36,638 nt of DNA from a virus (lineage: Duplodnaviria > Caudoviricetes), in the IMG/VR virus record IMGVR_UViG_3300038549_000053, positions 1-36,638 of that record. One strand, given 5' to 3'. Of the stretch, positions 3,223 through 18,253 are shown one piece after another (position 1 is the stretch's first letter; each line of letters begins with the position of its first letter). The notes under the pieces were generated by a model that made no database searches, was not told where the DNA came from, and saw nothing but the letters and a program-made list of their open reading frames with translations. The position numbers and the translations under genes were made by a program.

Positions 3223-3271
3223 TGTTCGCGTTAGGCGTCTGAGCAATCGGACGCCTACCGGGAAACACTAA
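3219..3271 (+). other. Long interrupted stem-loop with GCAA tetraloop (possible RNase III-type site)
   Basis: TTAGTGTT/AACACTAA lower stem; 11-bp upper stem TAGGCGTCTGA-GCAA-TCGGACGCCTA; no U tract. Confidence 0.6.
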
Positions 3272-3295
3272 ATCCATTGAACAGGAGAGCAAAAC

Positions 3296-3532
3296 GTGAG
3301 CAAGACCTACACAGTATTAATAACCCTTAGCGGGCGTCAACCGGCAGACTTAAAGGCACTTGCCGACCGGATAGCGGCAGACCTTGAAACCGGAACGGTG
3401 TCTGGCGCGTCTTTCTCTTCGGCCCAGTGCGATGTTTTCGAGGGAGATTGCACAGATGCGAAGAAATTACCCCGCGAAGGATTCAAAGCGCGGAAATTGC
3501 ACGGCGAGCTATCCGCAAACGGCAGCGACTAA
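3296..3532 (+). CDS. Hypothetical protein
   Basis: AGGAG RBS, GTG start, 78 aa. Confidence 0.7.
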   Translation: MSKTYTVLITLSGRQPADLKALADRIAADLETGTVSGASFSSAQCDVFEGDCTDAKKLPREGFKARKLHGELSANGSD

Positions 3533-3578
3533 TTAGGTATCTGCGCGGCCAAACTGCAAACCATGGAGAAATAACCCA

Positions 3579-4334
3579 ATGACACACAACAAACGCAAAC
3601 ACCGTGAAGCAATCCGCGAACGCGCGGCCGATGCGTTGCGCGATCTATACCACAACGCAACCCCTAACTATCCATCCCTCGACGATAAAGAGGGCGCCGA
3701 GTTTCAGGCGTGGTTCGAGGATGCCGCCGAATCTGAAATTGACTATTTACGCGATGGCGGGGCATACGGCACCGACTACCGCAAGACCCTAGCGGCACCA
3801 TGCAACGCCGGACGCTATCAGTCGGAAAAGGCGCGCGCCTATTACATCGAGCGCGGCATGCGCAAGATGCGCGAAGAGCGCGACGACTGCGGCGCGTTGC
3901 AAGGCTGGCACATGGTAGAACTCGCGGCCGGTAACAAAACACTAGCGCGCGCTCTAAAACGGATTTTCAGAAACCGCACGCCAAAACGCAATAACGCCCT
4001 TTGGGAATTCATCGGCGAATACGGGAAGCTTTACCAATATGGGCGCGGCGGGCGCACTCTAGCGCCAGATGATCTAGTGCGCTCGCGCGGTATGTCTTGG
4101 GGCATTCGCGAGGATTACGCCGAGGAAATCTCAATCGCCGCTTGCGTGCGATTAATTCAAATCGTCGAATCGTTTAATCGGTACGTCGCCGAGTGGTGCC
4201 GGTCGGTGCCGGAACAATGGGCGGAAGTAGTACGCGAACGCAAAGCGGAAGAGCGCGCGCAGCGTCGCGCATGCTTGGCCAAGTTACGCGCGGCTAAGCA
4301 GATGCGCGAGCGCTGCGAGACCTACGCGGGATAA
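3579..4334 (+). CDS. Hypothetical protein
   Basis: GGAG RBS; 251 aa. Confidence 0.8.
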   Translation: MTHNKRKHREAIRERAADALRDLYHNATPNYPSLDDKEGAEFQAWFEDAAESEIDYLRDGGAYGTDYRKTLAAPCNAGRYQSEKARAYYIERGMRKMREERDDCGALQGWHMVELAAGNKTLARALKRIFRNRTPKRNNALWEFIGEYGKLYQYGRGGRTLAPDDLVRSRGMSWGIREDYAEEISIAACVRLIQIVESFNRYVAEWCRSVPEQWAEVVRERKAEERAQRRACLAKLRAAKQMRERCETYAG

Positions 4335-4335
4335 C

Positions 4336-4383
4336 TGCTAGTGCGCCCTAGCTGTTAGGGCGCACTGTCGGCAATCCTGCCGA
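4336..4383 (+). other. Intergenic double stem-loop
   Basis: AGTGCGCCCTA-GCTGT-TAGGGCGCACT followed by TCGGCA-ATCC-TGCCGA just before the RBS. Confidence 0.6.
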
Positions 4384-4399
4384 GACACGGAGACACACA

Positions 4400-4684
4400 A
4401 TGCAAAATCCTGAACCCTTGGAATGGGCCGCGCTATGGTCCGCGATGGAAAACGAACCTAGCGCATGGATCGAAACGACGGCCGCGATGTATGACGAAAT
4501 GTTAAACGCTCTTCCGCCGCGCGCGATGGGCGCCGGCGCGTTTTTGGTCGGTGAACCCTACACGTACAACAACAACGGCGAAGCCGTTTATGCGTGTTTT
4601 GCGCAAGTCGGCCGCGACCGGTTCAAGGCGCGTTATTTGACAGTGCGCGAGTTTCGCGCGAGGGGGGCCAATGTTCCAGCCTAA
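4400..4684 (+). CDS. DUF1419-like protein
   Basis: E...Y.EMLN.LPP....F.VGEP......Y..F pattern; GGAG RBS. Confidence 0.6.
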   Translation: MQNPEPLEWAALWSAMENEPSAWIETTAAMYDEMLNALPPRAMGAGAFLVGEPYTYNNNGEAVYACFAQVGRDRFKARYLTVREFRARGANVPA

Positions 4685-4961
4685 GCACGGGTTAAGCTTT
4701 TTGATTCGCACACAAGCCGCCGCGTATGAACACGAGCGGCGCGCTTACAACGTCCCGCCTGGCGTCGGCATCGGTTGGACTCCCTACAAAATCCTAATTA
4801 CAGACGGGGCGATATCGTATTGCGCCTTTCATTCGGTCCGCGATTTCCGCCGTTGGTTGGGCGGATCGTTTCGCGTTTCGCTTACTGGCGGTTATAGGCG
4901 CATTCGGTATGGGCGCATCATCGCCAAGGATGAGGGAAGCAAACATGTCCAGCCTATTTGA
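4671..4961 (+). CDS. Hypothetical protein
   Basis: Overlaps flanking genes; GGGGG RBS. Confidence 0.6.
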   Translation: MFQPKHGLSFLIRTQAAAYEHERRAYNVPPGVGIGWTPYKILITDGAISYCAFHSVRDFRRWLGGSFRVSLTGGYRRIRYGRIIAKDEGSKHVQPI

Positions 4962-5133
4962 TGACGTAAAAGCCCGCGCCATTCCTTACGCTTCGCATGA
5001 GTCCGACCTTTACTTACCGGACACGCCAGAAGTGCGCGCATTGCTCGCGGCCCACAATCGAACGGCGCAACCGTTTATCAACCAAGTAGAAGGCGGGCAA
5101 TGGCTCGATGTCCCATTTGCCTATATCCCTTGA
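4945..5133 (+). CDS. Hypothetical protein (HESDLY motif); frame stays open past TGA to 5259
   Basis: GAGG RBS; ends FAYIP-TGA, then WEARAKR...CAECGEQWPC. Confidence 0.65.
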   Translation: MSSLFDDVKARAIPYASHESDLYLPDTPEVRALLAAHNRTAQPFINQVEGGQWLDVPFAYIP

Positions 5134-5269
5134 TGGGAAGCGCGCGCCAAACGACAGGTCGCACATTGCGCCGAGTGTGGCGAACAGTGGCCATGCAGTG
5201 ATAGCACGCGCACGGACATAAGGCCCACTTTGCGCGCGCGACACTATTGCAAGGTGTAATATTCGCGCG

Positions 5270-5317
5270 TTGCCTTAATGCCCATTGGCAACAGTGGGCA
5301 TTGTGGCAATTGTGCCA
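5270..5317 (+). other. Intergenic stem-loop with GCAA tetraloop and an alternative 3' hairpin
   Basis: AATGCCCATTG-GCAA-CAGTGGGCATT; TTGCC/GGCAA outer stem competes with TGGCA-ATTG-TGCCA. Confidence 0.6.
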
Positions 5318-5334
5318 ACTACGAGGGATTACCA

Positions 5335-5535
5335 ATGGCGAGACAAACGCTAAACGACACCGAGCGCGCGCAGTGGATCGACAACGACGAGGGGCTATAT
5401 AACTGGTGGCGCTCTTCGCGGCAATCCAAACGCGCCTTTATCCGTGACAATCGCGCCGAACTAGATGCCTGTATCAATCGCGTTTTATCGGGCGCCAAGC
5501 CCGCCCATTATCTGGCCTATGGTAGCAACCGATGA
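5335..5535 (+). CDS. Phage hypothetical protein (WIDNDEGLY motif)
   Basis: GAGG RBS before ATG 5335. Confidence 0.75.
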   Translation: MARQTLNDTERAQWIDNDEGLYNWWRSSRQSKRAFIRDNRAELDACINRVLSGAKPAHYLAYGSNR

Positions 5536-5687
5536 AAGCCCTAGACACTGCCGCGCGCCGCGTGGGCGCGATCCTTTACGGATTATCGTGGTTGCTGTTC
5601 TTGTCGGTGCCGTTCGCTGCGTTCGCGTTCGATGTCCAGCTAGGCGCGGCCGTTACGCTTCTATGGGCGGCGCTATGGCCAAAATGA
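5532..5687 (+). CDS. 51 aa membrane protein, about two TM segments
   Basis: Manual translation MKALDTAARRVGAILYGLSWLLFLSVPFAAFAFDVQLGAAVTLLWAALWPK; ATGA coupling at both ends. Confidence 0.65.
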   Translation: MKALDTAARRVGAILYGLSWLLFLSVPFAAFAFDVQLGAAVTLLWAALWPK

Positions 5688-5794
5688 CACACAGGGCAAG
5701 GCTGCGGGCTTGCTATACCCTGGCGCTGTTCCTGGGCGCCCCATGGACGGCCGGCAGTGTCGGCCTAGCTATCGCGAGGCGCCGGCATGCCTAG
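5684..5794 (+). CDS. 36 aa hydrophobic peptide
   Basis: ATGA-coupled; MTHRARLRACYTLALFLGAPWTAGSVGLAIARRRHA. Confidence 0.5.
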   Translation: MTHRARLRACYTLALFLGAPWTAGSVGLAIARRRHA

Positions 5795-6032
5795 ATGCAA
5801 GACCAAACACGCGACCGGCGAAGAACTGCGCGCGCTGCTTGAACGCTACGGGCTACGCGGCAACCCCGCCAGTGCCATGGTGGCCGACTTGTTGCGCGTG
5901 TCTCAGACATCCGTTCAGGGTTACTATTCGCGCGGACTGCGGCGCAACGATCTGGACCTGTTGGCCTACCGGCTGGCCGAGGCGTTTTCGAAAAACCTGC
6001 GTAAGCCGACGAATCAGGAAAAACTTGCGTAA
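5787..6032 (+). CDS. Small HTH DNA-binding protein, last gene of island (Aca-like position)
   Basis: ELRALLERYGL...VADLLRVSQTSVQGY helix-turn-helix pattern. Confidence 0.65.
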   Translation: MPRCKTKHATGEELRALLERYGLRGNPASAMVADLLRVSQTSVQGYYSRGLRRNDLDLLAYRLAEAFSKNLRKPTNQEKLA

Positions 6033-6063
6033 CTAAAATCGGAAATTCGAAATCCGAAATCCC

Positions 6064-6092
6064 AAAAGAAAAGCCCGCGCGAGGCGGGCTTT
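6064..6092. terminator. Intrinsic terminator (tR'-like, probably bidirectional)
   Basis: AAAGCCCGC-GCGAG-GCGGGCTTT with A/T-rich flanks between convergent units. Confidence 0.75.
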
Positions 6093-6136
6093 CAAGCCAC
6101 ACGAGGGTTGTCATGGGAACACTACGGGATGATGGG

Positions 6137-6166
6137 AATTTATGCCCTTTTCGCTGTTCCTGTCAA
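6137..6166 (-). promoter_or_regulatory. Late promoter (pR'-like)
   Basis: TTGACA-18 nt-TAAATT on the minus strand just downstream of the Q-like gene and upstream of a terminator. Confidence 0.65.
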
Positions 6167-6217
6167 TAGATACAGGCGTTTGCGGCCAAAACCCAAAAAC
6201 CTGCGTAAGGCGACGAA

Positions 6218-6769
6218 TCAGGAATCGCGCAGGCGGTGCGAAAAGCCGCGCCAAAAAAGCTCATCGTATAGGCCAAGCTGCGGAAAGACCCAATCGGCGT
6301 AGAAGCCCGCCCACCGGTTGGCCCAATACTTTCGGCCCATGCCGCTCGATCGGGCGCGCGTGGCCTCGCCCCAGGAACGCGGCCCCATGCCTTGGCACTC
6401 CGGGCAGACAACGATCAACTCAGGCCGTTCGGGATCGGGGATGCCTTCTTGCCCTCGGCACGTCGCGCACTGTTTGACGCGAGTGTATTCCCGTACACCG
6501 GTGCGGCAGACGCGAAACAACTCTTCGCCGTCGGCGTCTCGTGGCGTGCGGTTTTTGGAATTTAATTCAAGTTGTAGGCAAAAAATCAGATCGCGGCGGT
6601 AGATATCCTGGCCGGCATACATAACGCGCGCCAACAAGCGCGCACCGGCACTGGATATGAGCGCGAGCGCGAGTAAGACATCCTCGTTGCTCAGCACCGG
6701 CGGCCCGAGCCCGACCGTCCAGCCCGAGACCTTGGGATTGATCCTAGCGGCAAGCCGCGCGCAATTCAT
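6218..6769 (-). CDS. Q: Antitermination protein Q-like (lambda Q-type zinc finger)
   Basis: CATCRGQEG and CPECQGMG motifs; last gene of the early operon, before a promoter/terminator pair. Confidence 0.7.
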   Translation of the reverse strand: MNCARLAARINPKVSGWTVGLGPPVLSNEDVLLALALISSAGARLLARVMYAGQDIYRRDLIFCLQLELNSKNRTPRDADGEELFRVCRTGVREYTRVKQCATCRGQEGIPDPERPELIVVCPECQGMGPRSWGEATRARSSGMGRKYWANRWAGFYADWVFPQLGLYDELFWRGFSHRLRDS

Positions 6770-7052
6770 TTTGTTTCCCGTGAAACCGCGCGAAGTAATC
6801 GAGCGCGGCTTGGGCGTTGTCAAAGGTTAGGATGGTGCCCTGCCAAGTATCGTGAAAGCGCCGTTGCGCCGGCGTGTACTTCCATCCTACCGGACTGGCG
6901 TTCTTGATTTCGAGCAACTCATTTCGGCCGCGAAAGCCGACCACTAAATCGACAAAGCCGAAACCCACACTGGATGTCACCGCAACGCTCACGCCAAGCT
7001 CGCGCAGATCGCGCACAATGGCCGCTTGGTTGTGATCGGCGCGGTGTCTCAT
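6744..7052 (-). CDS. VRR-NUC / PD-(D/E)xK nuclease (resolvase-like)
   Basis: D.NQ..IV..LR..G..V, GFVDLVVG, LLEIK, TPAQ..F motifs. Confidence 0.8.
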   Translation of the reverse strand: MRHRADHNQAAIVRDLRELGVSVAVTSSVGFGFVDLVVGFRGRNELLEIKNASPVGWKYTPAQRRFHDTWQGTILTFDNAQAALDYFARFHGKQNELRAACR

Positions 7053-7675
7053 TGGTAGGCCATGGGCAGCAGATGATCGACATGCTCGGCCTTGGCCCAA
7101 TCGCGAAACCGGCTCGGCTCGATTTGGTTCCAGTGCTCAAAGCCCAATTGGTGTTTGACGGTTTGCCAACACCAATCTTCAATTTGATTGACGCGCTCTT
7201 GTTCCATATCGAGCGCCAGCGCGCTCTCGCCCTTGTCGTGTTGCAGGCGGTGGTGCGAGTCGCATAGGGGAATGGCGCTGTAGCTCGGCTTAATGCCGGT
7301 CCCCGCGCCCTCGGCGATGCGGCGCACATGCGCGGCCACCACGTCCCCGCCGTGCGGCCCGGCCTGCTCATGGCGCACCGCGCAGCGCTGTTGCGCGAGC
7401 CAATCGAGAAATTGGCGATCGTCGCCGACTTTCGGCCAGATAACCGGGATGCGGAAAAAGCCCGACTTGCGCAGTAACGCGGCTTGCGCGCCGTATTGAC
7501 CGAGCGGCTTTTGGTTGACAATGGAGAAAGCGACGGCGACTTGCTCGCCGATACGCGGCAGGAAAGTCGCGATCAAGGCGGCGTATTCTTGTGGGACGGC
7601 GAGGGTCAGCAACGCCTCTTGCGTGCTCGCTCGGGAGCGCACGGCATCGACGGTGACGATAACGGCATCGCTCAT
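7049..7675 (-). CDS. DUF968-like HNH/zinc nuclease
   Basis: FLDWL..Q.C, AAHVR, GTGIKP..SAIPLC..HH..QH. Confidence 0.75.
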   Translation of the reverse strand: MSDAVIVTVDAVRSRASTQEALLTLAVPQEYAALIATFLPRIGEQVAVAFSIVNQKPLGQYGAQAALLRKSGFFRIPVIWPKVGDDRQFLDWLAQQRCAVRHEQAGPHGGDVVAAHVRRIAEGAGTGIKPSYSAIPLCDSHHRLQHDKGESALALDMEQERVNQIEDWCWQTVKHQLGFEHWNQIEPSRFRDWAKAEHVDHLLPMAYQ

Positions 7676-7869
7676 GCGTGCAACCGTTGAATCGTAAGAC
7701 CGCGCAAAAAGATACGATCCTCGCGGATGATCCCCTGGCCGGTAGTTTTCAACAAATCGAACTGCGTAGGCGTCAAGCGCAACTCACGCACGTTTGGCGC
7801 CAAAGCCTGAAAGCGATCAATCTCCGTCAACAAGTGCAAGGCTTCTTTGGGAATACGTTGCGCTTTCAT
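7672..7869 (-). CDS. Hypothetical protein
   Basis: 65 aa; ATGA-coupled to the next gene. Confidence 0.6.
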   Translation of the reverse strand: MKAQRIPKEALHLLTEIDRFQALAPNVRELRLTPTQFDLLKTTGQGIIREDRIFLRGLTIQRLHA

Positions 7870-7874
7870 CCGTT

Positions 7875-8258
7875 TAGCTCACAAACCGAATAACCATTCT
7901 CCGTTACGGCAAACCATGCTTAAGCACGGTGCGACATTCAGTTAACCCTAAACCCGATTACCTGCACCTGCACCGCAGGGACGCGCATCGTTTACCAGCC
8001 CATCCGTATCGTGGATCAATCGCCTACCCCACCGTTGCATCCTGCCGGCCGTGGTCGCCGTGTTAACCGTTCGCGTGCGTTGTTTGGGCTGTATATGGTT
8101 GCCGTCGCGCCTACTGGCAAACCGGGGCGGGTCACCCCCGATCGTTCCGCTTCACGGCGTCGGATAGGCCGGTGTTTGCTCGCCTGTCGGCCCATGCAGG
8201 CCCAAGAGCTTTTAACGTTGGGCGTCAACGGACAACACTACGCGCTGTAGTGCTGTCA
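7875..8258 (-). ncRNA. Candidate structured non-coding RNA or origin region
   Basis: About 380 nt without a credible ORF, own upstream promoter, at least seven helices seen by eye. Confidence 0.4.
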
Positions 8259-8264
8259 AACGCG

Positions 8265-8292
8265 ATAATAGGCGGGGAACGGAAAAAGTCAA
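8265..8292 (-). promoter_or_regulatory. Sigma70-like promoter
   Basis: TTGACT-16 nt-TATTAT on the minus strand. Confidence 0.55.
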
Positions 8293-8304
8293 CCGGCTCT
8301 AATG

Positions 8305-8583
8305 TCAGTAACAAACTTCCCGCCATACGTAGCGACGGATGGCGTAGTCATAGACCTGTTGCGGGACGCACCGGCTGGTGCCGATGGGGGGAACCTGTGG
8401 CGTTGGGATTGGGGCGATTGACGGCGGCGGCAACGGGCAAAGCTGCGCACCGCACAGCGGCGGAATGTCGAGGCTGTTGCTGCACAACGGTCGCGCGATG
8501 CCATTGACACACGCGCAATAACAATCGGCCTCGGCCGCAAAAGAAATACCGAACACAACGATGCCAAATAGCCACTTTTTCAT
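8305..8583 (-). CDS. Secreted Cys/Pro-rich small protein
   Basis: Signal peptide ending AEA; 8 Cys; GGAGG RBS. Confidence 0.75.
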   Translation of the reverse strand: MKKWLFGIVVFGISFAAEADCYCACVNGIARPLCSNSLDIPPLCGAQLCPLPPPSIAPIPTPQVPPIGTSRCVPQQVYDYAIRRYVWREVCY

Positions 8584-8586
8584 TTG

Positions 8587-9318
8587 CTATCCTCCGTCTT
8601 TGCTTTTGAGTTGATCGATATGAACAGTCAGCGCTTCCTTTAACTGAGCCATCAAATGTTCCATCGAAACTTCGGTTACGTTCTTCCACTCTTCATGATG
8701 AATATCGACGGCATTCAAGATTTGCCGTCGGGTTTCGACGAATGCGTCATTGACCGTTGTAAAATATTCAGTTAGTTCTTTGTTTATATCGGCGTCGGCT
8801 TTCTGAATCTGGTCTAAGAATCGATGGCGCGCTTCGCGCAACTTGCTGTGTCCCGTGTGTTGACGAATATATTCTTGTACCTTTTGTCGCAATGTGCGTT
8901 GTCGATTCACACGCTCGTTTTCACAGCTCTCGATCAAGGTCGTCATGCCCGCCTGAAAATATAGCTGCACTGCCATCCGCACCAACAGTTTCAACGGAAA
9001 ATCGTCGAGCTTTTTGTCAACTTCTCCGACTACATGATTCTCGAACCTGCGAAATGCTTTTTGCGTGTGCTCGCGTGATTCTTGCTTCACATCTTCCAGT
9101 GTGTCGTCGAAAATGTGAAGAAGCTCGCGGCGCTCTTTTTCCATCTCGGTATCGTGCTTTTGTTCCAATGCGCGCACCAATCCGCGCCATAGCTTCATCG
9201 TTGGAAATCGCCCTTGCTTGGCCATGTCGTCTAAACGCGTGCGCGCTTCGGCCAACATGCGCGCCGTGAGCATGGCGCTGTGCTTCTTGTCGTCTACTTC
9301 CTGGGTTTTTTCGCTCAT
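8587..9318 (-). CDS. Coiled-coil hypothetical protein
   Basis: 243 aa, charged and helical; ATGA-coupled. Confidence 0.75.
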   Translation of the reverse strand: MSEKTQEVDDKKHSAMLTARMLAEARTRLDDMAKQGRFPTMKLWRGLVRALEQKHDTEMEKERRELLHIFDDTLEDVKQESREHTQKAFRRFENHVVGEVDKKLDDFPLKLLVRMAVQLYFQAGMTTLIESCENERVNRQRTLRQKVQEYIRQHTGHSKLREARHRFLDQIQKADADINKELTEYFTTVNDAFVETRRQILNAVDIHHEEWKNVTEVSMEHLMAQLKEALTVHIDQLKSKDGG

Positions 9319-9722
9319 TTGCGCTTCACCGACGCCATGATGCCGGCCTTGAATTCGCGCAACTCGTCAAGCTCGCGGCGCTCGATTTCCGATGTGATGT
9401 GATTGCGCACTTCGAGCCACGCATTCATCAACGCGTCCATCGCCTTTTCAAAATCGCGTTGCACCTTGCTCGCGCGCGGTGTCGCCGCGTCGGTGGGTTC
9501 GCGCCGGGTGTAGGCGCGCACCTTGCCAAGTTCTGCTACCGTCACTTCCCAACATTTAAGTATGCCGTTCTTGCCCGTTTCGCGAACGGTGTTGTTGGTT
9601 TTCATGTGCGTGATCGCGTTGCCGACTTGCTTCATATCCAGGCGCGTGCCTTCGCTAATATCCTTAGTAGATGCGCCGGGGTGGGCTTTGAGGTATTCGA
9701 ACACTTTTTGCTTGGGTGTCAT
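9315..9722 (-). CDS. Winged-helix DNA-binding protein
   Basis: VFEYLKAHPGASTKDISEGT...VGNAI..M...V.E.G wHTH pattern. Confidence 0.7.
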   Translation of the reverse strand: MTPKQKVFEYLKAHPGASTKDISEGTRLDMKQVGNAITHMKTNNTVRETGKNGILKCWEVTVAELGKVRAYTRREPTDAATPRASKVQRDFEKAMDALMNAWLEVRNHITSEIERRELDELREFKAGIMASVKRK

Positions 9723-10523
9723 TTAGCTAATTCTCCGTTCGATTTCTTCCCGGAATTCGCGCAGCGCTTTAAGTTCGGCTTCTTGTTCGCTCAGGATGGT
9801 AAGAACGAGGTCGGAGGCGTCGTAGACCTTCATCAAGGCGAGCACGGCTTGCGTGAGTTGATCGGTCGGCGGTGTGCGACCCATCACTTTGTCGAGCGCT
9901 GTTTGCAACGGCAGATCGATAGTAGGCGCAAGCGGTAACGGTGGATCGGTAACGGGTGGGGAATCGACGGCTTGTGAAAAGGCGCTGATCTTGTAGAAGC
10001 GCTTGTTGCCTTCCATTTCATACTCGATCAATTGCATCTTGGTTAGATCGCGACATTGCAGGTATACCACATTGATGTCCCAACCCAATGCCTCGGTGAT
10101 CGCGTCGGCGCCAATAGGCCCGCGCCGCTTGATGACATCGTAGACCGCGCCCTTTTTGCCTTTGATGATCGGCTGGCCGTCTGTGTCGAAGCTCAGTTTG
10201 CCGTTAATGCCATTGATGTGAACGCGTTCCTTGACCGTGCGCCGTGGGGCGGCGAGACGTTTGGCGTGTTCGGTGAGGAAATAGCGTGTAAGCAGTGTGC
10301 CGCGCACATCTTTGATTTGTACTTTCTCGACCATCGGGGGCTGACAGTCGCTTTGCAGATAGTGTAAAGCGCGTGCGGTGGCGGTTTGATCCAATCCGCT
10401 TTCGGCCGTGAGTTCTTGTAGATCGCGGCCGCCGTCATACAATGTTCGTATTATTCGGTTAGCGTCGGTTTGTCGATCGGTGGCGCAAGTGGTTTTAAAA
10501 ATATCTTCAATCTTTAGTTCCAT
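9723..10523 (-). CDS. Protein with two winged-helix (MarR-like) domains
   Basis: Two wHTH patterns (ELTAESGLDQTATARALHYL; ITEALGWDINVVYLQCRDL..MQLI). Confidence 0.7.
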   Translation of the reverse strand: MELKIEDIFKTTCATDRQTDANRIIRTLYDGGRDLQELTAESGLDQTATARALHYLQSDCQPPMVEKVQIKDVRGTLLTRYFLTEHAKRLAAPRRTVKERVHINGINGKLSFDTDGQPIIKGKKGAVYDVIKRRGPIGADAITEALGWDINVVYLQCRDLTKMQLIEYEMEGNKRFYKISAFSQAVDSPPVTDPPLPLAPTIDLPLQTALDKVMGRTPPTDQLTQAVLALMKVYDASDLVLTILSEQEAELKALREFREEIERRIS

Positions 10524-10758
10524 TTGCTATCGTCTCCTTTTGCGTTTGAAAAAACATTTCTTTCAATTCTCGATGCCGTTTGTATTTGCGACGGTTCGCC
10601 ACCGCCAGGATCGTGCTAAACGCGCGGCGGCTTGGACAACGAATTGCCTTTTCATAATGGGAAATCGTGGTCTGACAACAACCCAACTCTAGCGCAAATT
10701 GTCGCTGACTCATCTTGCAGTGCATCCGAAGCTTCTTTAATTCTTTGGCTAACTGCAT
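10507..10758 (-). CDS. cro: Cro-like XRE HTH regulator
   Basis: LKKLR...MSQRQFALELG..QTTISHYE; divergent from cI. Confidence 0.8.
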   Translation of the reverse strand: MQLAKELKKLRMHCKMSQRQFALELGCCQTTISHYEKAIRCPSRRAFSTILAVANRRKYKRHRELKEMFFQTQKETIANGTKD

Positions 10759-10917
10759 TGATTTTCCTTTTGTTAATCGGCATTACTACATCAAGTAGTG
10801 ATAAAATACAACCGTTCGTCCCCCGATACTTGGCAAACCACCGCGCCCGATGCTACCATTGCCTGATTACAAATAGCTATATAACTGATTCATAATACAA
10901 CAGGTTGTCATGTCACG

Positions 10918-11517
10918 ATGATACAGACATTTGGCCAACGACTCAAAAACTTACGGCAAGCTCAGGGAATGACACAGGCGCAACTAGCCGATGCGTGCGG
11001 CTGGCAACACAACTCCGACCGAGGCCAAGCACGGGTATCGCACTACGAGCTTAATCGTCGGCGACCAACGCTTGACGACGCGCAAAAACTCGCTACCCTC
11101 CTGCATACAAGTATAGATTTCCTTTTGAAAGGGAAGCACACGGAGTTTGATACGCCATGGCGGTATGTGCCCTTGCGGCCATGGAATGAACCGCACGCGA
11201 AAGTCAAAGCCAAAGGGGCGCCATTGGCAGTACCGGTGTTACCGTCGGTCAGCATAGGCATAGGCAAGGCGGCTTTTGCGATCGCCGTAAAGCGCGCCTA
11301 TGCGCCTGATTTTCATCGTGGCGATATCGTAGTGATCGATCCCGATCGCAAACCCAAGGTGGGCGATTTCGTTTTAGTGCGTAACCGTGCGCGCACCGAC
11401 ATTGCCAAGCTCGTACGCGTCGGCAAGGATTGCCAATTGCAAATGCTCAATGGCGCGCGGCTCACGACCGACCATGTTCGCTACGGCGTGATCGCCGCCC
11501 GCTTCATCCATTTCTAG
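10918..11517 (+). CDS. cI: CI-like repressor: XRE HTH plus degenerate S24 domain
   Basis: FGQRLKNLR...MTQAQLA...VSHYE..RRRP; C-terminal AFAI.V....P.F..GDIVVIDP....GDFV. Confidence 0.85.
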   Translation: MIQTFGQRLKNLRQAQGMTQAQLADACGWQHNSDRGQARVSHYELNRRRPTLDDAQKLATLLHTSIDFLLKGKHTEFDTPWRYVPLRPWNEPHAKVKAKGAPLAVPVLPSVSIGIGKAAFAIAVKRAYAPDFHRGDIVVIDPDRKPKVGDFVLVRNRARTDIAKLVRVGKDCQLQMLNGARLTTDHVRYGVIAARFIHF

Positions 11518-11523
11518 GCTCTC

Positions 11524-11554
11524 ACCGCCCCTTGCGTTTTGGGGCGGTTTTTTT
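11524..11554 (+). terminator. Intrinsic terminator after cI
   Basis: ACCGCCCC-9 nt-GGGGCGGT followed by a T run. Confidence 0.85.
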
Positions 11555-11565
11555 GGGCGACAAAT

Positions 11566-11606
11566 ACTACGCCGCGTATTGACAGCGCCGAGCGCGCGCG
11601 TACACT
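11566..11606 (+). promoter_or_regulatory. pL-like promoter with adjoining palindrome
   Basis: TTGACA(11579)-16 nt-TACACT(11601); ACTACG-CCG-CGTATT overlaps the -35. Confidence 0.7.
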
Positions 11607-11636
11607 ATTTCGTTCTCCGCACGAGGATCGTTCGAT

Positions 11637-11816
11637 ATGCGGCTGCAAGAACGTTTTCGTCAGTGGACTTACCGCCAGCGCATTAAGCATTTGCAAATGC
11701 TGGTGTCCGATCTGCGCGACTACGAGACGCAAGCGCATCGGTACTTGAACACACTACGCAGCGAAATCGAGCGCAGCGAGCGCGAATTGCAATGGCGACA
11801 AACGCAAATCCGCTAG
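11637..11816 (+). CDS. 59 aa coiled-coil protein, first gene of pL operon (not in ORF track)
   Basis: GAGGA RBS; MRLQERFRQWTYRQRIKHLQMLVSDLRDYE...QTQIR. Confidence 0.65.
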   Translation: MRLQERFRQWTYRQRIKHLQMLVSDLRDYETQAHRYLNTLRSEIERSERELQWRQTQIR

Positions 11817-12754
11817 GCTGGCAACCCTCGGCCGAATGGCGGCGGTTGCAACTCGTTACCATCGGCTCGACCGCCGCCGGTGTCATCGCCAACGAATCGC
11901 CCTACGAAAGCCCGCGCGAGTTATACGGGCGCATGATCGCGGCGCGCGACAACCGTTTAATCGACATCCCCGTAAACGATGACATGCGCCGGGGCATTTT
12001 GACCGAACCCTTGCACCGCATGCTGTTGGCCGACGAACTGCAACGCGAGATTCATCCGCACGACCAAGATCAATTCTTGACCAACGAACGATATCCGTGG
12101 GCGCACGCCCTGCCCGATGGTTGGCTGATTCACAGCGAAACCGAAATGCTCACATATCAAATTCCGGTGCAACTCAAATGCCCGCGCCCGCGCTCTTGGC
12201 ACGAAATCAAATTGAAGGGCATTCACGGGCATTGGTTGCTTGGCTCGCAACACACGCTCGCCGTCACCGACGCGCCGTTCGAGCAATTCTCCGTGCTCAA
12301 TCCCGAAACGTTTCGGGTGCTGACCTTTCCCGTTTACCGGGATGAAATCTTGATCGGCGCGCTCATGGAACGCGAGCGGCGCTTTTACGATGCCTATCTG
12401 ATCCGCGCCGAACCGCCCGAGCAAACCGAAAAACTCGAATTGCCCGCCGTGAAGGGGCAGATGATGATGCTCGACACGCCCGAAGCCCTCGACTGCGCGG
12501 GCGCCTACCGCGATGCGCTGCGGCTGGAAACCGAGGCCAAGGAACTGCGCGATCTGGCCGAAGAACGCATTAAGAAAATGATGGGCGAGTATCGCGTGAT
12601 CGAACTACCGGGGTTGCGTTGTTACAAGCAGGATTTTCCAGGGCGCGAAACCCTCGACAAGAAAAAGTTGCAAGCCGATGGCATCGATCTAACGAAGTAC
12701 ACCAAGATCGGCAAGCCCTATTCGGTCTTTCGGCCGTATCTGTTGGGCAAATGA
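11792..12754 (+). CDS. YqaJ/lambda-exonuclease family recombination nuclease
   Basis: EWRRL...IGST.A, M.RG...EP, HALPDGW, QLKCP motifs. Confidence 0.85.
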   Translation: MATNANPLGWQPSAEWRRLQLVTIGSTAAGVIANESPYESPRELYGRMIAARDNRLIDIPVNDDMRRGILTEPLHRMLLADELQREIHPHDQDQFLTNERYPWAHALPDGWLIHSETEMLTYQIPVQLKCPRPRSWHEIKLKGIHGHWLLGSQHTLAVTDAPFEQFSVLNPETFRVLTFPVYRDEILIGALMERERRFYDAYLIRAEPPEQTEKLELPAVKGQMMMLDTPEALDCAGAYRDALRLETEAKELRDLAEERIKKMMGEYRVIELPGLRCYKQDFPGRETLDKKKLQADGIDLTKYTKIGKPYSVFRPYLLGK

Positions 12755-12888
12755 TCGCAAAACTACTTGGTGTCGTGCTCACGTTGCTACCGGTCGGATT
12801 GGTAGTCGCGTTGTTTGGGTATTGGTTGGAGCGCCGTCGTCGGCGTGACTTATTGCAGGAGACCACCATCAAGGAGAAACGCAAATGA
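12751..12888 (+). CDS. 45 aa single-TM protein
   Basis: MIAKLLGVVLTLLPVGLVVALFGYWLERRRRR; ATGA-coupled at both ends. Confidence 0.6.
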   Translation: MIAKLLGVVLTLLPVGLVVALFGYWLERRRRRDLLQETTIKEKRK

Positions 12889-13664
12889 ACCGCTTCGTTT
12901 TGGTCGTAATGCTGTTGCCGCTGTTGCAAGGATGTGGATTTGAGCAAGTAGACACCGGCTATCGCGGTGTCAAGACGACGTGGGGCGAAGTGGACATGAA
13001 GGCCGGTTCATTGCCGGAAGGGCTTTATTGGTATAACCCGATCACGTCTACTATCAGCGAAATGGATACGCGCATCCAGCGCAGCGAAATGAAGGTGAAC
13101 ACCTATACCAAGGACGTGCAACAGGCCGATATCACCTTGGTCGTGAATTATCGTCTCAAGCAGGATCAAGCGCATGTCATGTTCAAGGAAGTCGGCCAAC
13201 GTTGGGACGCCGTACTAGTCCCGCAAGCCGTCGAGGGCGAGTTGAAAAAGGTCATCGGCCAATACGATGCCGTCGATCTAATTTCGAACCGTGGCAGGGC
13301 CACGGCCGATGCGCAGAATGCCATCGCCAATTCACTGGACGCGCGCAACGTGGTTGTCGATCGCGTCGAAATGGTGAATATCCAATATCTCAAGGCGTTC
13401 GAGGAATCCGTCGAGGCTAAAGTCGTCGCAACGCAGAAAGCCGTCGAAGAGGCCAACCGCACGAAGCAAGTACAGGAACAGGCTAAACAGAAAATCATCG
13501 ATGCGCAGGCCACCGCCGAATCCATGCGCATTCGGGCCAATGCACTGCAACAGAATGCGAAGCTCGTGGAGTATGAAGCCGTGCAGAAATGGGACGGCAA
13601 ATTACCGCAATATATGTTTGGTAATGCCACACCGTTCATTGATATGCGCAAAGCGCAGAACTGA
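12885..13664 (+). CDS. SPFH/band 7/prohibitin family protein, possibly a lipoprotein
   Basis: LQGC lipobox-like; V.TG.RGV...G.V, TKD.Q, F...VE.K..A.Q, KWDGKLP. Confidence 0.9.
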   Translation: MNRFVLVVMLLPLLQGCGFEQVDTGYRGVKTTWGEVDMKAGSLPEGLYWYNPITSTISEMDTRIQRSEMKVNTYTKDVQQADITLVVNYRLKQDQAHVMFKEVGQRWDAVLVPQAVEGELKKVIGQYDAVDLISNRGRATADAQNAIANSLDARNVVVDRVEMVNIQYLKAFEESVEAKVVATQKAVEEANRTKQVQEQAKQKIIDAQATAESMRIRANALQQNAKLVEYEAVQKWDGKLPQYMFGNATPFIDMRKAQN

Positions 13665-13684
13665 AAAGAACTAGGAGAACAAAT

Positions 13685-13897
13685 ATGAAATTATTTGAAT
13701 ACGCTTGCATCTATAACCCGCTCCCAACGAGGGAACAGCAAGAGCGCGGCGAGAAACCGAAAGCGGTTTTGATCGTGGACGTGACGCGCACGCTCGCCAA
13801 CAACGACAAAGAGGCGATGATGTTGGCGGCGCGCTCGATTCCCGACGACTACAGCGACAAGCTTGACTTGATCGAGATTGCTATCCGCCCTTTCTAG
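13685..13897 (+). CDS. Phage hypothetical protein ending RPF; probable -1 frameshift extension to 14055
   Basis: AGGAG RBS; C CCT TTC TAG slippery site followed by a stem-loop. Confidence 0.75.
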   Translation: MKLFEYACIYNPLPTREQQERGEKPKAVLIVDVTRTLANNDKEAMMLAARSIPDDYSDKLDLIEIAIRPF

Positions 13898-14067
13898 CCC
13901 CTGCCGCCGTCGAGGCGAGCCAGGGGCGACTATCCAAAGCGATGGAGCGGTACGCGTCGGAATCGGACAATGCGAGCTTTGCGGCTTGGGCAAACGACAA
14001 GCACATGATCGTTCCCAAATCGACCTACACGGTAGCGAGTACCGTACACAGATAAGAGGACTACACC

Positions 14068-14724
14068 ATGGTAGAGACTGCAATAGCAAAAAGCGAAGCG
14101 GCGAAGTCGATTATCGCCGACATGGCTGGACGCTTCGGCATGGAACGCACCGCGTTCGAGGCGACGTTGCGCAAAACCATCATGCCGCAGGCGACTGGCA
14201 ACGAACAGATCGCCGCATTTCTAATCGTCGCGCGCGAGCACGATTTGAATCCATTCACGAAAGAGATTTACGCCTTCCCGACCAAGGATGGTGGCATTCA
14301 ACCCGTGGTGCCGATCGACGGTTGGCTTAAAATCATTAACTCGCATCCGGCGTTCGACGGCATGGAAATCGAGGAACACTTTAGCGGCGACGATATGATC
14401 GCGTGGGTGCGCTGTACCATACACCGCAAGGACCGCGAGCACCCGACTAGCGTCACCGAGTATTATCCCGAGTGCGTGCGTAATACCGAACAGTGGAAGC
14501 AGAAACCGATTCGCATGTTGCGCCACAAGGCCGTCATTCAATGCGGGCGCTACGCATTCGGGTTCGCCGGCATCCTCGATCCCGACGAAGCCGAGCGCAT
14601 GATTGAAATGGGCGCGGCCGAGATTGTGCCCGCCCAGCAAGCGACCGAAAAACGCTTGAGCGACCTACGCGCCAAGCTTACCGCCGAGCCTGCTCCGGCA
14701 GCGGCGGCCGAGCCAACCGTATGA
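14068..14724 (+). CDS. bet: Phage recombination protein Bet (RecT/Red-beta family)
   Basis: FL.VA....LNPFTKEIYAFP, PVV.IDGW..I.N.HP.FDG, W...P.RMLRHKA.IQC.R.AFGF.GI.D.DE. Confidence 0.92.
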   Translation: MVETAIAKSEAAKSIIADMAGRFGMERTAFEATLRKTIMPQATGNEQIAAFLIVAREHDLNPFTKEIYAFPTKDGGIQPVVPIDGWLKIINSHPAFDGMEIEEHFSGDDMIAWVRCTIHRKDREHPTSVTEYYPECVRNTEQWKQKPIRMLRHKAVIQCGRYAFGFAGILDPDEAERMIEMGAAEIVPAQQATEKRLSDLRAKLTAEPAPAAAAEPTV

Positions 14725-14728
14725 CCCT

Positions 14729-14770
14729 ATGGACGCCAATACACGGCGTATGGACGCCAATACACGGCGT
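14729..14770 (+). repeat. Perfect 21-bp tandem duplication (MDANTRR x2)
   Basis: ATGGACGCCAATACACGGCGT twice. Confidence 0.95.
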
Positions 14771-14956
14771 ATTTGCACGCTCCGACAATTCGAGTTGGAC
14801 ACGGGCATTAGCGATCATGCCGTGCGCGCCCTGATAAGGCGAGGTAAGCTACTGAAAAATAAACACTATTTACAGAAGCAAACGCGCGGCCGCATCCTGC
14901 TCGACTATGACGCCATCGTGCAATATTTTCGCGAGGAAGTCTTTCCGTTCACTTGA
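14729..14956 (+). CDS. xis: Excisionase-like protein
   Basis: Small wHTH pattern (F...TG.S..AVR..I.RG.L....H......GRIL.D..A) directly before int. Confidence 0.7.
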   Translation: MDANTRRMDANTRRICTLRQFELDTGISDHAVRALIRRGKLLKNKHYLQKQTRGRILLDYDAIVQYFREEVFPFT

Positions 14957-14999
14957 CCGACTTGATCCCACCGTATAGGATTTGATTACACACTGTAAT
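14953..14999 (+). promoter_or_regulatory. int promoter with downstream operator
   Basis: TTGACC-17 nt-TAGGAT, then ATTACA-CAC-TGTAAT at 14985-14999. Confidence 0.6.
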
Positions 15000-15020
15000 A
15001 CTCCAAGGGGTGATAATACC

Positions 15021-16271
15021 GTGGGAAAGAAAAGCAGCACACCCGGCGTCGAGGTCCGCGCCGGCTCGATTCGAATCGTGTTCACTTGGAACGGCCAGCG
15101 CTGTAAACCTAGCCTCGGCGTGCGGGCGACGGACGAAACCATTAAGTACGCCACGCAACTGCGCACAACCATCGTCAACGCCATTGCGATCGGCAAGTTC
15201 ACGCTAGAGGACTATCAGCGCTATTTCCCGGCGAGTCCGTCGCCGCGCAAAATCAAGGTGATGCAACGCAACGCGCCAACCGTGCCGAATCTGTTGCACG
15301 AGTGGATGGCACTACAAACGCTAAAACCTTCGACCGCCAAGAGTTTCCGCGCCGCGATCAACGCCTGGACGGCCGCATGGCCGACGAAAGCCGTTGCCGA
15401 CTTGACCACTATCGACATTCGCACCGTCATTCGCCAATGGCAAAGCGCCGGCACTTTCGTTAAGACCATCCGCAACTATCTCATACCGCTACGCGGCACG
15501 CTCAACCATGCGCTTGAGAAAGACTTGATCGACACCAATCCGCTCGACCGCATTCGCGACATCAAGCCCGACGAAAGCGAGCTAATCAAGCGCGTGGCCA
15601 AGGGCGATGAAATCAGGCCCTTCAAGCTCGATGAAATCGCCAAGATTCTCAAGGCAGCTAACGATCCCGAAATCAAAGACTTCATTGAATTTTGGTTGTT
15701 CACCGGCCTGCGCGTGGGCGAGTTATTCGGGCTGGCATGGGAGTCGGTCAATCTCACACGCGGCACCGTTCACGTTTGCCGCGCCATGACAGGCGGCGTG
15801 CTTGGTACGCCCAAGGCCAATCGCCGCTCGCAGCGCTCGATCAGCCGCAGCATGCGCACCTTGCAATTGCATCCGCGTGCGCTCGCCGTGTTGCGCCGGC
15901 AAAAGGCGCGCACCTTCATGCAAGCGCCGGTTGATTGCGGCGCGCACGGTAAACTGCGCTTCGTATTCCTGCACCCGCGCAAGGGTACGCCTTGGCGCGA
16001 TGATCAAGAGTTTCGGCTTGGTTATTGGGAGGCGATCTTGCGCCGTGCCGAGATCGATTATCGCCGCCCCTACCAGCTACGGCATACGTTCGCATCGATG
16101 TGCCTGTCGTTCGGCGAACCGGAAGAGTGGATTGCCGAGCAAATGGGCCATGTCGATGTCGGCATGATCCGCCGCACCTACGGCCGCTTTATGAAGGACT
16201 ACGCGGACGCGGCCGGGCGGTCCACCGGGCAAAAGTTTCATTCGATGTTTAATGATGAAGGGATAATGTAG
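15021..16271 (+). CDS. int: Tyrosine integrase with N-terminal arm-binding (DUF3596-type) domain
   Basis: GVEVR..SIRI.F.W.G.RC; catalytic TGLR, YQLRH, MGH, RTY; GTG start after AAGGGG. Confidence 0.95.
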   Translation: MGKKSSTPGVEVRAGSIRIVFTWNGQRCKPSLGVRATDETIKYATQLRTTIVNAIAIGKFTLEDYQRYFPASPSPRKIKVMQRNAPTVPNLLHEWMALQTLKPSTAKSFRAAINAWTAAWPTKAVADLTTIDIRTVIRQWQSAGTFVKTIRNYLIPLRGTLNHALEKDLIDTNPLDRIRDIKPDESELIKRVAKGDEIRPFKLDEIAKILKAANDPEIKDFIEFWLFTGLRVGELFGLAWESVNLTRGTVHVCRAMTGGVLGTPKANRRSQRSISRSMRTLQLHPRALAVLRRQKARTFMQAPVDCGAHGKLRFVFLHPRKGTPWRDDQEFRLGYWEAILRRAEIDYRRPYQLRHTFASMCLSFGEPEEWIAEQMGHVDVGMIRRTYGRFMKDYADAAGRSTGQKFHSMFNDEGIM

Positions 16272-16274
16272 GCC

Positions 16275-16532
16275 ATGAGACTCGAAGCGCACGCCGGTAA
16301 CTGCGTGAATGGCGGTCGCCATTCTTGGCGCAGTAAAGAATTTCGCATTTCCAAAGGTGCTTTCACGAGTTTGTACGGGACGATCTGCGCGAAATGCCAA
16401 CGTATTCGGATCACCGAATACACAAAACGAGGGAATCATGTTGCCGGTTACAGACAGGCAAGTGTCGATGAAATTGGAAGGAAAGTTCAGGAATTGAGCA
16501 AGGAAAAACTTGAAGCAATTGATGGCGAATGA
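16275..16532 (+). CDS. Hypothetical Cys/His protein
   Basis: 85 aa, 3 nt after the int stop. Confidence 0.6.
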   Translation: MRLEAHAGNCVNGGRHSWRSKEFRISKGAFTSLYGTICAKCQRIRITEYTKRGNHVAGYRQASVDEIGRKVQELSKEKLEAIDGE

Positions 16533-16791
16533 CAAGGCGTGCCCCGCTTGCGGTGGCAATGACCGCGACCGCCCTTGTGCTTATCCGTCCGAGGGGCAGA
16601 AAGGGTGCCTGCGGGACATACGCTTAGCTCGATGGCGCGCCAACGCGGAGGTTCGAGAATTGATTATCGCACTGCGCGGCGGCCCACCGGACAAGTGCGA
16701 CTTTTGCGGTAACATGACGCTGCCGGATAACTTGCATCCCGAAGAGGCCGGCGAATGGATTTGTAACGATTGCATCAAGAGGCTGGGGTAA
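16522..16791 (+). CDS. Zinc-finger-like protein (CPAC, CDFC, CNDC)
   Basis: Three CxxC pairs; overlaps previous stop. Confidence 0.65.
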   Translation: MANDKACPACGGNDRDRPCAYPSEGQKGCLRDIRLARWRANAEVRELIIALRGGPPDKCDFCGNMTLPDNLHPEEAGEWICNDCIKRLG

Positions 16792-16793
16792 CG

Positions 16794-17042
16794 ATGAGCG
16801 ATGAGAAAGCGAGTCAAGGCATCGTTAGCTGCACGAAGTGCAACGATACCGGATGGCGCAGGTATGGCCACAACCACGCCCAAGTGTGCGAATACTGTTG
16901 TAAACACGATAAAGGCTGGTGGGAACTTACCGAAGGATGCTCGGGGTATCAGCCTGGCGCGGATAACCGTTGCTGTAAGGCGGGATGCGGAACGCTGTAC
17001 CGGGATTTGCCAGCTAACGCCGTTTTAACCGACGGAGATTGA
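16794..17042 (+). CDS. Cys-rich protein of cassette 1
   Basis: MSDEKASQGIVSCTKC...; body bounded by GTTAGCTG (16824) and CAGCTAAC (17011-17018). Confidence 0.7.
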   Translation: MSDEKASQGIVSCTKCNDTGWRRYGHNHAQVCEYCCKHDKGWWELTEGCSGYQPGADNRCCKAGCGTLYRDLPANAVLTDGD

Positions 17043-17331
17043 ACCGACCGGAGTGGCGCGGCGTAACCGGCGTCGGCACGAGTGAATTGTTATGGCAACA
17101 AAACCTTTTCAATGCTCGCGATGCAGAAAGCCATTCGGGCAACCGAATGACTGCCAACAGCATATTAACGCCAAGCACGGCGGAAACGGGAAGGTTAAGA
17201 AACGCGCAAAGCATGGCGACGATTCTTTTGCTTCTCGTGCCATCGAAGCCGAATTGGCAATCGCTTGTGGCGAACAAACAGATGACGCATGGTTGTTGCC
17301 ATAACGCCGCCTTAACCGACGGAGATTGAAC
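17015..17331 (+). repeat. 30-bp direct repeat TAACGCCGYYTTAACCGACGGAGATTGAAC at 17015-17044 and 17302-17331
   Basis: 28/30 identity; attC half-site plus a GGAG RBS. Confidence 0.9.
17092..17304 (+). CDS. C2H2 zinc-finger-like protein of cassette 2
   Basis: FQCSRCRKPF......QH...KH; ATG lies in GTTATG and TAA lies in CATAAC. Confidence 0.75.
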   Translation: MATKPFQCSRCRKPFGQPNDCQQHINAKHGGNGKVKKRAKHGDDSFASRAIEAELAIACGEQTDDAWLLP

Positions 17332-17592
17332 ATGAACGATACTGCGACACAACCTAACGAGCGCCTTGTTATGTGGGCGCTTGATCTAGGTTTTGCTACC
17401 GGACATGCGGATACCGAACAAGACTTGTTGGATGAAGTAGGAGCACAGATAAAAGAACTGCAAGCCAAATACTATGAACTGCTTTATGGTGTGGCTAGGA
17501 AGTTTCCTAATGAAACCCGGCATGAGACAGCACTTCGGTATATACGAAACGCTGAAACTCACGGCAACGAACCGGCTAAATGTGACACATAA
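17332..17592 (+). CDS. Hypothetical protein of cassette 3 (ELLY.V..K.P.ETRHETALRYI..AE)
   Basis: GGAG RBS in the repeat; stop codon lies in CACATAAC. Confidence 0.75.
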   Translation: MNDTATQPNERLVMWALDLGFATGHADTEQDLLDEVGAQIKELQAKYYELLYGVARKFPNETRHETALRYIRNAETHGNEPAKCDT

Positions 17593-17649
17593 CGGCCCGC
17601 TTGAGCCGCGCGCCGACTAGGCGCGTCGGACTCGAAGCGGTTGTTATGT
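17587..17649 (-). other. Complete attC recombination site (63 bp)
   Basis: Minus strand: ACATAAC-AACCG-CTTCGAGTCCGACGCGCC-TAGTC-GGCGCGCGGCTCAAG-CGGGCC-GTTATGT; 5/6-nt spacers and three unpaired bases in the R''-L'' arm. Confidence 0.85.
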
Positions 17650-17665
17650 TTCATTGGAGGAATGA

Positions 17666-17839
17666 ATGGGCGCGAGTACACGGGTATATGTGAAGGTTGT
17701 GAAAGAGGTTTGTTCTTGGGTCGAGGTAAGCGCGGTTACGCTTGATGAAGCCAAGGTAATAGCACGAAACGAAGATAAGGATGTGGTCCGAGTTGCTGAA
17801 GCGCAATACGATCCGCCATATTCAGAGACTGAAACATAA
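17666..17839 (+). CDS. 57 aa protein of cassette 4 (not in ORF track)
   Basis: GGAGG RBS; MGASTRVYVKVVKEVCSWVEVSAVTLDEAKVIAR...ETET; TAA lies in ACATAAC. Confidence 0.75.
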   Translation: MGASTRVYVKVVKEVCSWVEVSAVTLDEAKVIARNEDKDVVRVAEAQYDPPYSETET

Positions 17840-17922
17840 CAGTTGAGTATACGGCTGGTGCGGCGATATTGCCCAGTTATGAAATTGATTCTGACGCTTG
17901 ATCGCTAACGGAGATAGTGACG

Positions 17923-18078
17923 ATGAACAACGAACGAGACAGGCGCAACCTGACCGAAAACGAACAGAAGGTATTGGATGGAGCACTTCGGAAATCTGTC
18001 AAGATCGTAGCGCGGTGCGCAAAATACGGTGGGATCATGGGGCAAAAATGGGGCAAAACCATGCTCAAACGTGCTTAA
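17923..18078 (+). CDS. 51 aa hypothetical protein running into the attP arm
   Basis: GGAG RBS; MNNERDRRNLTENEQKVLDGALRKSVKIV... Confidence 0.45.
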   Translation: MNNERDRRNLTENEQKVLDGALRKSVKIVARCAKYGGIMGQKWGKTMLKRA

Positions 18079-18253
18079 GCATGGTTAGCCGTATCAGAGA
18101 AGGGTTATAAAGACCATCACATAACTAACTGATAATAAAAGAAACCGAAAAGCAGCATTTTTGGGTATTTGGCGGAGAGGGTGGGATTCGAACCTTCCAT
18201 ATCGCGCTAGATATCAACGCGTTGGAGGTTCAGGGGGCAGGAATGGGGCGCGC
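18037..18253. other. attP: tRNA-Ser 3'-end core (18170-18194) with arm repeats and IHF sites
   Basis: Minus strand GGTTCGAATCCCACCCTCTCCGCCA; ATGGGGCAAAA x2 at 18037-18058 and AGGGGGCAGGA/ATGGGGCGCGC at 18232-18253; IHF match TATCAACGCGTTG at 18212. Confidence 0.85.

Follow-up and report, generated by a model that had tools for sequence, protein, structure and literature searches.

Four reversed integron-type cassettes adjoin a putative attI-type site in a phage genome that lacks intI

The stretch of DNA analysed here, referred to throughout as the window, comprises 36,638 bp from the record of a temperate tailed phage (Caudoviricetes; IMG/VR IMGVR_UViG_3300038549_000053). A second assembly of the same phage was found to overlap both window ends and to add 4,551 bases, giving a circle of 41,189 bp. 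The added bases (G029:C1; coordinates 7873–12423), which are absent from the window, include a terminase-like frame of 480 codons, and the record is rated 58% complete. Four small units, each carrying one gene, lie between the phage integrase gene and the attP core, and the features of this region are listed below, with the junctions designated J0 to J4.

14982..16271, plus strand: arm-type tyrosine integrase of the phage, not an IntI and probably not the enzyme that moves the cassettes (PF12167, Arm-DNA-bind_2; PF00589, Phage_integrase; phrog_1)
16522..16791, plus strand: Cys-rich early gene preceding the array, its TAA stop being the outer crossover box
16786..16830, minus strand: J0, dead attC remnant holding the start of gene 1; left arm gone, L box short by 6 nt, in frame, with 2 of 7 L pairs
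16792..17017, plus strand: cassette 1, the oldest by position, with 8-bp matched ends; its Cys-rich gene (16794–17042) runs through AAC into the next site
17012..17095, minus strand: J1, chimeric attC holding the stop of gene 1; half-site model match on the minus strand, 3 of 7 L pairs
17018..17304, plus strand: cassette 2, with 13-bp matched ends and a C2H2 zinc-finger-like gene (17092–17304)
17299..17374, minus strand: J2, chimeric attC whose loop contains the ATG of gene 3 and its ribosome site; minus-strand model match, 2 of 7 L pairs
17305..17592, plus strand: cassette 3, with a gene (17332–17592; HETALRYI motif) of a common phage family that has no assigned function
17587..17649, minus strand: J3, intact attC; its top strand is the window minus strand and its recombining bottom strand is predicted to be the plus strand
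17593..17839, plus strand: cassette 4, the newest by position and the only one with an intact attC, with 11-bp matched ends and a 57-aa gene (17666–17839)
17834..17905, minus strand: J4, putative attI-type entry site, with homology to bacterial sites and a predicted crossover at 17839|17840
17923..18078, plus strand: 51-aa ORF, possibly spurious, where an intI gene would sit
18170..18194, no strand assigned: attP core, matching the 3' end of tRNA-Ser(CGA) exactly

A first-pass annotation made from the sequence had described four consecutive units with ends that are exact reverse complements, and these were recovered at 16824/17018 (8 bp), 17089/17305 (13 bp), 17368/17593 (8 bp) and 17643/17840 (11 bp). 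This chain of four matched pairs is the only one in the window, and no chain of four arose in 200 dinucleotide shuffles, where the longest was three (10 of 200 with matches of at least 7 bp; 1 of 200 with at least 8 bp). The R'' and R' boxes can therefore pair over these lengths in the circular form of all four units. Ordinary cassettes were found to have matched ends of 7–12 bp, comparable with the 8–13 bp of the phage units, and long matched ends were for that reason dropped as a special trait. The annotation was also right that three stop codons lie within the TAAC box. TAA of this box ends three of the unit genes (17304, 17592 and 17839) and likewise the gene preceding the array (16791), while AAC in gene 1 is read as Asn and the stop follows at 17042. 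A rule in which the box is always an in-frame Asn thus fails here (one Asn and four stops among five boxes). An arrangement in which each unit is broken in the attC loop, in the order right arm, gene, left arm, was also dropped, as the arms flanking genes 2 and 3 do not pair.

A covariance model was built from 18 attC sites of ordinary integrons, taken from plasmids and Shewanella phage M16-3, and its search of the whole window, with E values up to 10, returned five matches. J3 scored 27.5 bits (E 8e-4) on the minus strand only; an attC match at 17587–17649, which the first-pass interpretation needed, is therefore present, though on the minus strand. J2 (17.9 bits) and half of J1 (10.3 bits) were also matched on the minus strand, and the remaining matches were one unrelated place (10.1 bits) and J4 on the plus strand (9.8 bits, E 6). 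J3 is the sole junction with a strong fold (z -6.9 and -6.3). By attC criteria drawn from the accessible sections of PMC2727003, J3, read with the plus strand as bottom strand, resembles seven controls in that 7 of 7 R pairs and 6 of 7 L pairs form, one G is extrahelical and AAC is followed by a G, and the published bottom strand of aadA7 has the same layout as J3 on the plus strand. Set against the CALIN criteria of Qi 2023 (at least two predicted attC sites at 20 bits and no intI), J3 alone exceeds 20 bits in our own model, with J2 at 17.9 bits. A search of Rfam gave no relevant match, and in a blastn search of J3 against 50,697 phage records no record covered 80% of the site.

As J3 was matched on the minus strand only by a model of ordinary attC sites, it is the attC bottom strand that carries the genes. 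IntI cuts at AAC in the bottom strand, according to the sections of PMC5027507 that were available, and the crossovers are thus predicted on the plus strand at AA|C (16791|2, 17017|8, 17304|5, 17592|3 and 17839|40), with each attC heading the gene downstream of it. The plus-strand ORFs are real, with one homologue each for gene 2 (58%) and gene 4 (51%) and, for gene 3, homologues in 60 further viral loci. The four units are therefore integron-type cassettes in reversed form. Of the reading as integron cassettes, the attC-type ends and the model match stand, and the orientation does not, as the attC sites are reversed with respect to the genes; the crossover had been placed at G|TT, each attC had been taken to trail its gene, and the last junction had been taken as an attC, where it appears to be an attI-type site.

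The cargo proteins gave only weak family matches. Gene 2 has a weak match to PF13894, and its homologue is at viral locus L132; the homologue of gene 4, at L130, has no attC. The gene 3 homologues match the ORF on the plus strand, and in a filtered model search of the 60 loci about 57 proved to be plain phage genes without attC. An attC was present at L036 and at three near-identical loci (L014, L015 and L017), where the gene is again reversed and has its own matched ends; members of this family are thus cassette genes in three independent contexts, each time with matched ends.

The junctions differ in how well they are kept. L-box pairs number 2, 3, 2 and 6 of 7 in J0, J1, J2 and J3, respectively, and J3, unlike J0, J1 and J2, shows paired L boxes on the bottom strand together with an extrahelical base and a spacer left unpaired. 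One of the five junctions is thus an intact attC and three are decayed, J4 not being an attC. The left ends of J1 and J2 have 28 of 30 nt in common, and the right arms of both do not fit that left end; J1 combines the left arm of one site with the stem and right arm of another. Genes for a RecE/YqaJ exonuclease and a Bet/RecT annealing protein are located at 11792–14724 in the window and could explain the chimeric sites. The intact site, J3, adjoins J4 and the worst site, J0, is the farthest off, an order that the entry of cassettes at J4 would be expected to produce. Shuffling is probably no longer possible for most of the array, and as three of the four attC sites are broken it may be mostly a relic. 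At position 17644, the GTT box of J3 is one T shorter in run X2 of the metagenomes described below; this is either a variant, which would weaken the site, or an assembly error.

The sequence of J4 was compared with bacterial genomes, and sites were found in which the core is identical (18 of 18 nt) and the wider match reaches 30 of 35 nt. A search of 185,579 genomes with a 23-base J4 pattern gave three stretches on two contigs, one of them from Sulfuricaulis (Acidiferrobacterales), in a genome with no IntI over the cut-off. Among 103 Acidiferrobacterales genomes the 18-nt core is present at 26 places in 15 genomes (one place for a reversed-pattern control), whereas among 401 genomes of the class there were 21 places, fewer than the roughly 30 hits of the control; three genomes in this set that are outside the order match with no or one mismatch. 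In G072, G077 (where the intI gene has one stop) and G138 the core and intI share a strand, with the core ~380, ~200 and ~550 bp upstream, respectively, and in these genomes it stands at the head of ordinary cassettes. IntI over the cut-off was detected in 29 of the 103 genomes, and in three of the 15 core-bearing genomes the core is beside intI, many copies being orphans. The arms of J1 and J3 also match attC sites in Acidiferrobacterales genomes. In four genomes (G078, G077, G036 and G074; loci L145–L170) there are several cores, six in G078, most with no intI nearby; these copies each head cassettes and may be orphan attI units. A further contig, L135 (accession number JANLIP010000009.1), is labelled Kaiserbacteria, and its attI and cassette are almost identical to those of Sulfuricaulis; it may be misbinned.

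The bacterial copies are oriented differently with respect to genes. The first ORF within 120 nt is on the top strand for 23 of 27 copies (in one case tied with a bottom-strand ORF), and the other four comprise two cut by contig ends, one with no ORF and one with a bottom-strand ORF only, as is the case for J4 in the window. In viral contigs, the J4 pattern was found only in the other assembly of the same phage and as two chance matches inside coding sequence. J4 has 5 of 7 L pairs and its attC score is weak. A promoter-like site was detected on the minus strand (17875–17846), where 1.9 such sites are expected by chance, and it would read antisense to the cassette genes. The target of attG-type secondary insertion is unlike attI and attC, whereas J4 is homologous to sites in the attI position. 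From homology and position, on which its role at the head of the array rests, J4 is thus predicted to be an attI-type site.

The adjacent integrase had been called an ordinary arm-type Int and not an IntI, and this holds: the arm-binding domain and phrog_1 were matched and TIGR02249, the IntI model, was not. No match to TIGR02249 was found in either assembly, which together make up the 41,189-bp circle, and there is accordingly no intI gene next to the attI-type site as in a complete integron. The 51-aa ORF was considered as a remnant of IntI, and BLASTP showed no likeness. A search of viral contigs with the phage Int found only another assembly of the same phage, and one of the 103 Acidiferrobacterales genomes encodes a relative (35%). 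The attP core is present exactly in 44 of the 103 genomes, with a tRNA call at four of four loci. The host is likely to be in or near Acidiferrobacterales; the assignment is tentative, as the tRNA-Ser core is widely conserved, the Int relative is rare and the J4 core is also found outside the order. Distant relatives of the Int are encoded at L070 (coordinates 4030–5308) and L071 (coordinates 5220–5939), followed by other small genes, one of them methyltransferase-like in L070, and attC-like half sites were seen by eye.

The array region is present in seven wetland metagenome runs, four of which may be where the window comes from, and contigs (Logan) of six of the seven were compared. Cassette 1 was found in a second replicon in runs X3, X5 and X7, with 12 differences in 207 nt in X7. 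There, the leader upstream is homologous with six extra bases in the L box, and downstream the sequences diverge two bases past TAAC, so that cassette 1 has moved as a unit with its ends at the crossover. J4 was matched in five contigs from four runs over 35–39 nt, starting at 17837 in four and at 17830 in one; the four upstream ends listed are all different, and GTTA at 17877 is not conserved. The contigs with cassette 1 or J4 may be of phage or bacterial origin. The first-pass prediction that boundaries in related sequences would be cassette-precise was thus borne out, as the flanks change at TAAC (AA|C) in contigs from other samples. A search for circular junctions had also been proposed, and no excision joint, empty joint or circle was seen in the contigs of the six runs, which cannot show rare events; no RNA dataset with the region was among the listed runs. 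The proposal that the phage gains and shuffles small genes in this way is supported by the boundaries at the boxes in other contigs and is weakened by the presence of only one intact attC.

A motif designed on J3 and L002, which samples a single attC family, identified 37 viral loci in 34 distinct contexts, this phage included. ORFs with a ribosome site favour the bottom strand at 36 of the 37, and a downstream match of at least 7 bp is present at 30. Among 35 viral records in which reversed arrays occur, two have an intI gene of their own, which directly follows the array on the gene strand, and the end sites of these two differ from J4. Long reversed arrays with an intI just past the end site are found at L123 (G002; coordinates 6900–14970) and L124 (G031; coordinates 4360–9270), and the IntI of G002 is on a very long branch.

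Reversed cassettes were also found in two bacterial arrays of mixed polarity. In L212 (G092:C177; coordinates 1889–3783), two ordinary cassettes are followed by three reversed ones adjoining attI and intI, and in L213 (G102:C46; coordinates 3707–5893) ordinary cassettes are followed by two reversed ones in the same position. The genes after intI in L213 are presumably thiE, hemL and polA. All attC sites in the two arrays are of one polarity, and the matched ends are mostly 7–12 bp. One of the reversed genes has three homologues, one diverging right past the in-frame Asn, and another has no homologue but itself. In one pair of protein homologues the leader before GTT also differs, and attC and gene are thus not always kept together. 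No clear homologues of the five reversed genes were found in PHROGs or the viral loci; these genes are presumed to be of phage origin, and the mixed arrays suggest traffic between phage and host. In a tree of IntI sequences, weakly supported and with one long branch, no clade of reversed-array enzymes was seen.

Taken together, we consider it probable that the phage carries an integrase-less integron, made up of an attI-type site and four cassettes with bottom-strand genes, that was loaded by a host IntI acting in trans. What is observed directly comprises the polarity and the borders of the units, the similarity of the end site to sequences upstream of bacterial intI genes, and the lack of intI in the 41.2-kb genome. 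That the loader is an ordinary host IntI would follow from the phage having no intI, from both polarities occurring in bacterial integrons and from there being no separate IntI clade. The enzyme would fold the plus strand at a cassette attC, cut at AA|C and insert the circle at the attI-type site (17839|17840), and with every insertion the older cassettes would be shifted towards int. An early phage transcript would read the genes, with TAA of the crossover box providing the stop and the attC loop or arm the next start. The older sites would have decayed with the reading frame kept, and cassette 4 alone is predicted to be excisable now. The array is predicted to work like an integron and is not a complete one, and its cassettes lack the gene polarity of ordinary cassettes.

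Three other accounts of the array were weighed. Ordinary cassettes, each gene followed by its own attC and crossing over at G|TT on the plus strand, would also have matched ends, which are expected with either polarity, and would fit the weak plus-strand score of J4. However, J3 scores on the minus strand only, the box pairing of J0–J3 contradicts this geometry, cassette 1 travels with the leader upstream of it and not with the site downstream, and other J4 copies do not conserve GTTA at 17877; the genes are not on the top strand upstream of their own attC, and we regard this account as hardly credible. Movement of the units by the phage arm-type Int or by a host Xer-type recombinase would accord with the position of the array between int and attP and with the two Int relatives (46% and 39%) that precede other small genes, with attC-like half sites seen by eye at L071. 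This is nevertheless very unlikely, as the Int has an arm-binding domain and its own tRNA-Ser core, the J4 core adjoins true intI genes, and reversed arrays are found in many records unconnected to this Int; the half sites at L070 and L071 received no score from the model.

The third account, that of a relic, deserves more weight than these two and is still improbable: IntI would have assembled the array in an ancestor that was perhaps a phage carrying its own intI, and change would now come only from homologous or illegitimate recombination, for instance between shared attC arms through the Bet and RecE-like proteins. It would account for three of the four attC sites being broken or chimeric, for J1 and J2 sharing most of their left ends, for the Bet and YqaJ genes upstream, for the viral records in which a reversed array has its own intI and for the lack of joints in the contigs of the six runs. 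Against it, J3 is intact and adjoins a well-kept attI core, and flanks change within two bases of AAC, where the homology is too short for homologous exchange. The J4 core, moreover, matches bacterial attI and is unlike the sites that end the arrays of the two viral records with intI. The reading with a host IntI acting in trans is thus preferred.

Clusters of attC sites in phages have already been published, and in the available text of Qi 2023 (PMC9892861) 17 phage CALINs are reported, with IntI1 recombining five of six phage attC sites. These resemble the present array in having small genes bounded by attC in phages with no intI, and differ in that the text available mentions neither bottom-strand genes nor an intI-less attI in a free phage, although Figure 2 may show the layout. 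When cases from that study were re-examined, the genes of TJE1 were on the top strand and the annotated genes of PH101 on the bottom strand; the reversed layout is thus present in those data. In PH101 (L068; coordinates 490–2560) there are two units with a common leader and tail and AA|C boundaries, and an unannotated top-strand ORF may also exist. The reversed design, whether in phage cassettes or in mixed arrays, was not found described in the literature searched, in which most subscription papers were out of reach, and 'reverse integron' in literature listings refers, as far as the listings show, to oral integrons.

In relation to classical integrons as described in the accessible parts of Bouvier 2009 (PMC2727003) and Nivina 2016 (PMC5027507), the phage array has the same attC anatomy, matched ends, attI position and polarity and AAC bottom-strand crossover. 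It differs in that the genes face attI rather than away from it and intI is missing, each attC heads its gene and overlaps the start of that gene and the previous stop, and expression would come from the phage operon and not from Pc. The chromosomal integrons of Acidiferrobacterales (G072, G077, G138, G092 and G102) share the attI core, related attC arms and, in two arrays, reversed cassettes, whereas most of their cassettes are of ordinary polarity and intI is present. Insertion at attG and SALINs (Loot et al., bioRxiv 10.1101/2022.09.11.507474) and delta-attI cassettes (PMC12901181), in the parts of these sources available, likewise involve IntI acting in trans off its own platform, whereas J4 appears to be a homologue of a true attI and not a bare GWT site, with four insertions at one point.

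The array would provide a site-specific route to mosaicism of phage genes that requires no phage enzyme. For annotation, the reversed design means that a top-strand convention would assign each attC to the wrong gene. The phage also offers matched parts, namely an intact attC, its putative attI and named cognate host IntIs, and the attI-type site suggests which host group this uncultured phage infects. The origin of integron cassettes is an open question, and the gene 3 family bears on it, being mostly plain phage genes and yet a cassette in some contexts. A broader idea, offered tentatively and with rather more doubt than confidence, is that phages and hosts share a single IntI-driven pool of cassettes of two polarities, in which host-type attI sites lie in phage early operons, ordinary phage genes are made into reversed cassettes there, and these flow back to chromosomal integrons. 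If this were true, new cassettes would arise in phage early operons, and junctions between phage genes, as well as protein ends, would routinely derive from decayed attC arms.
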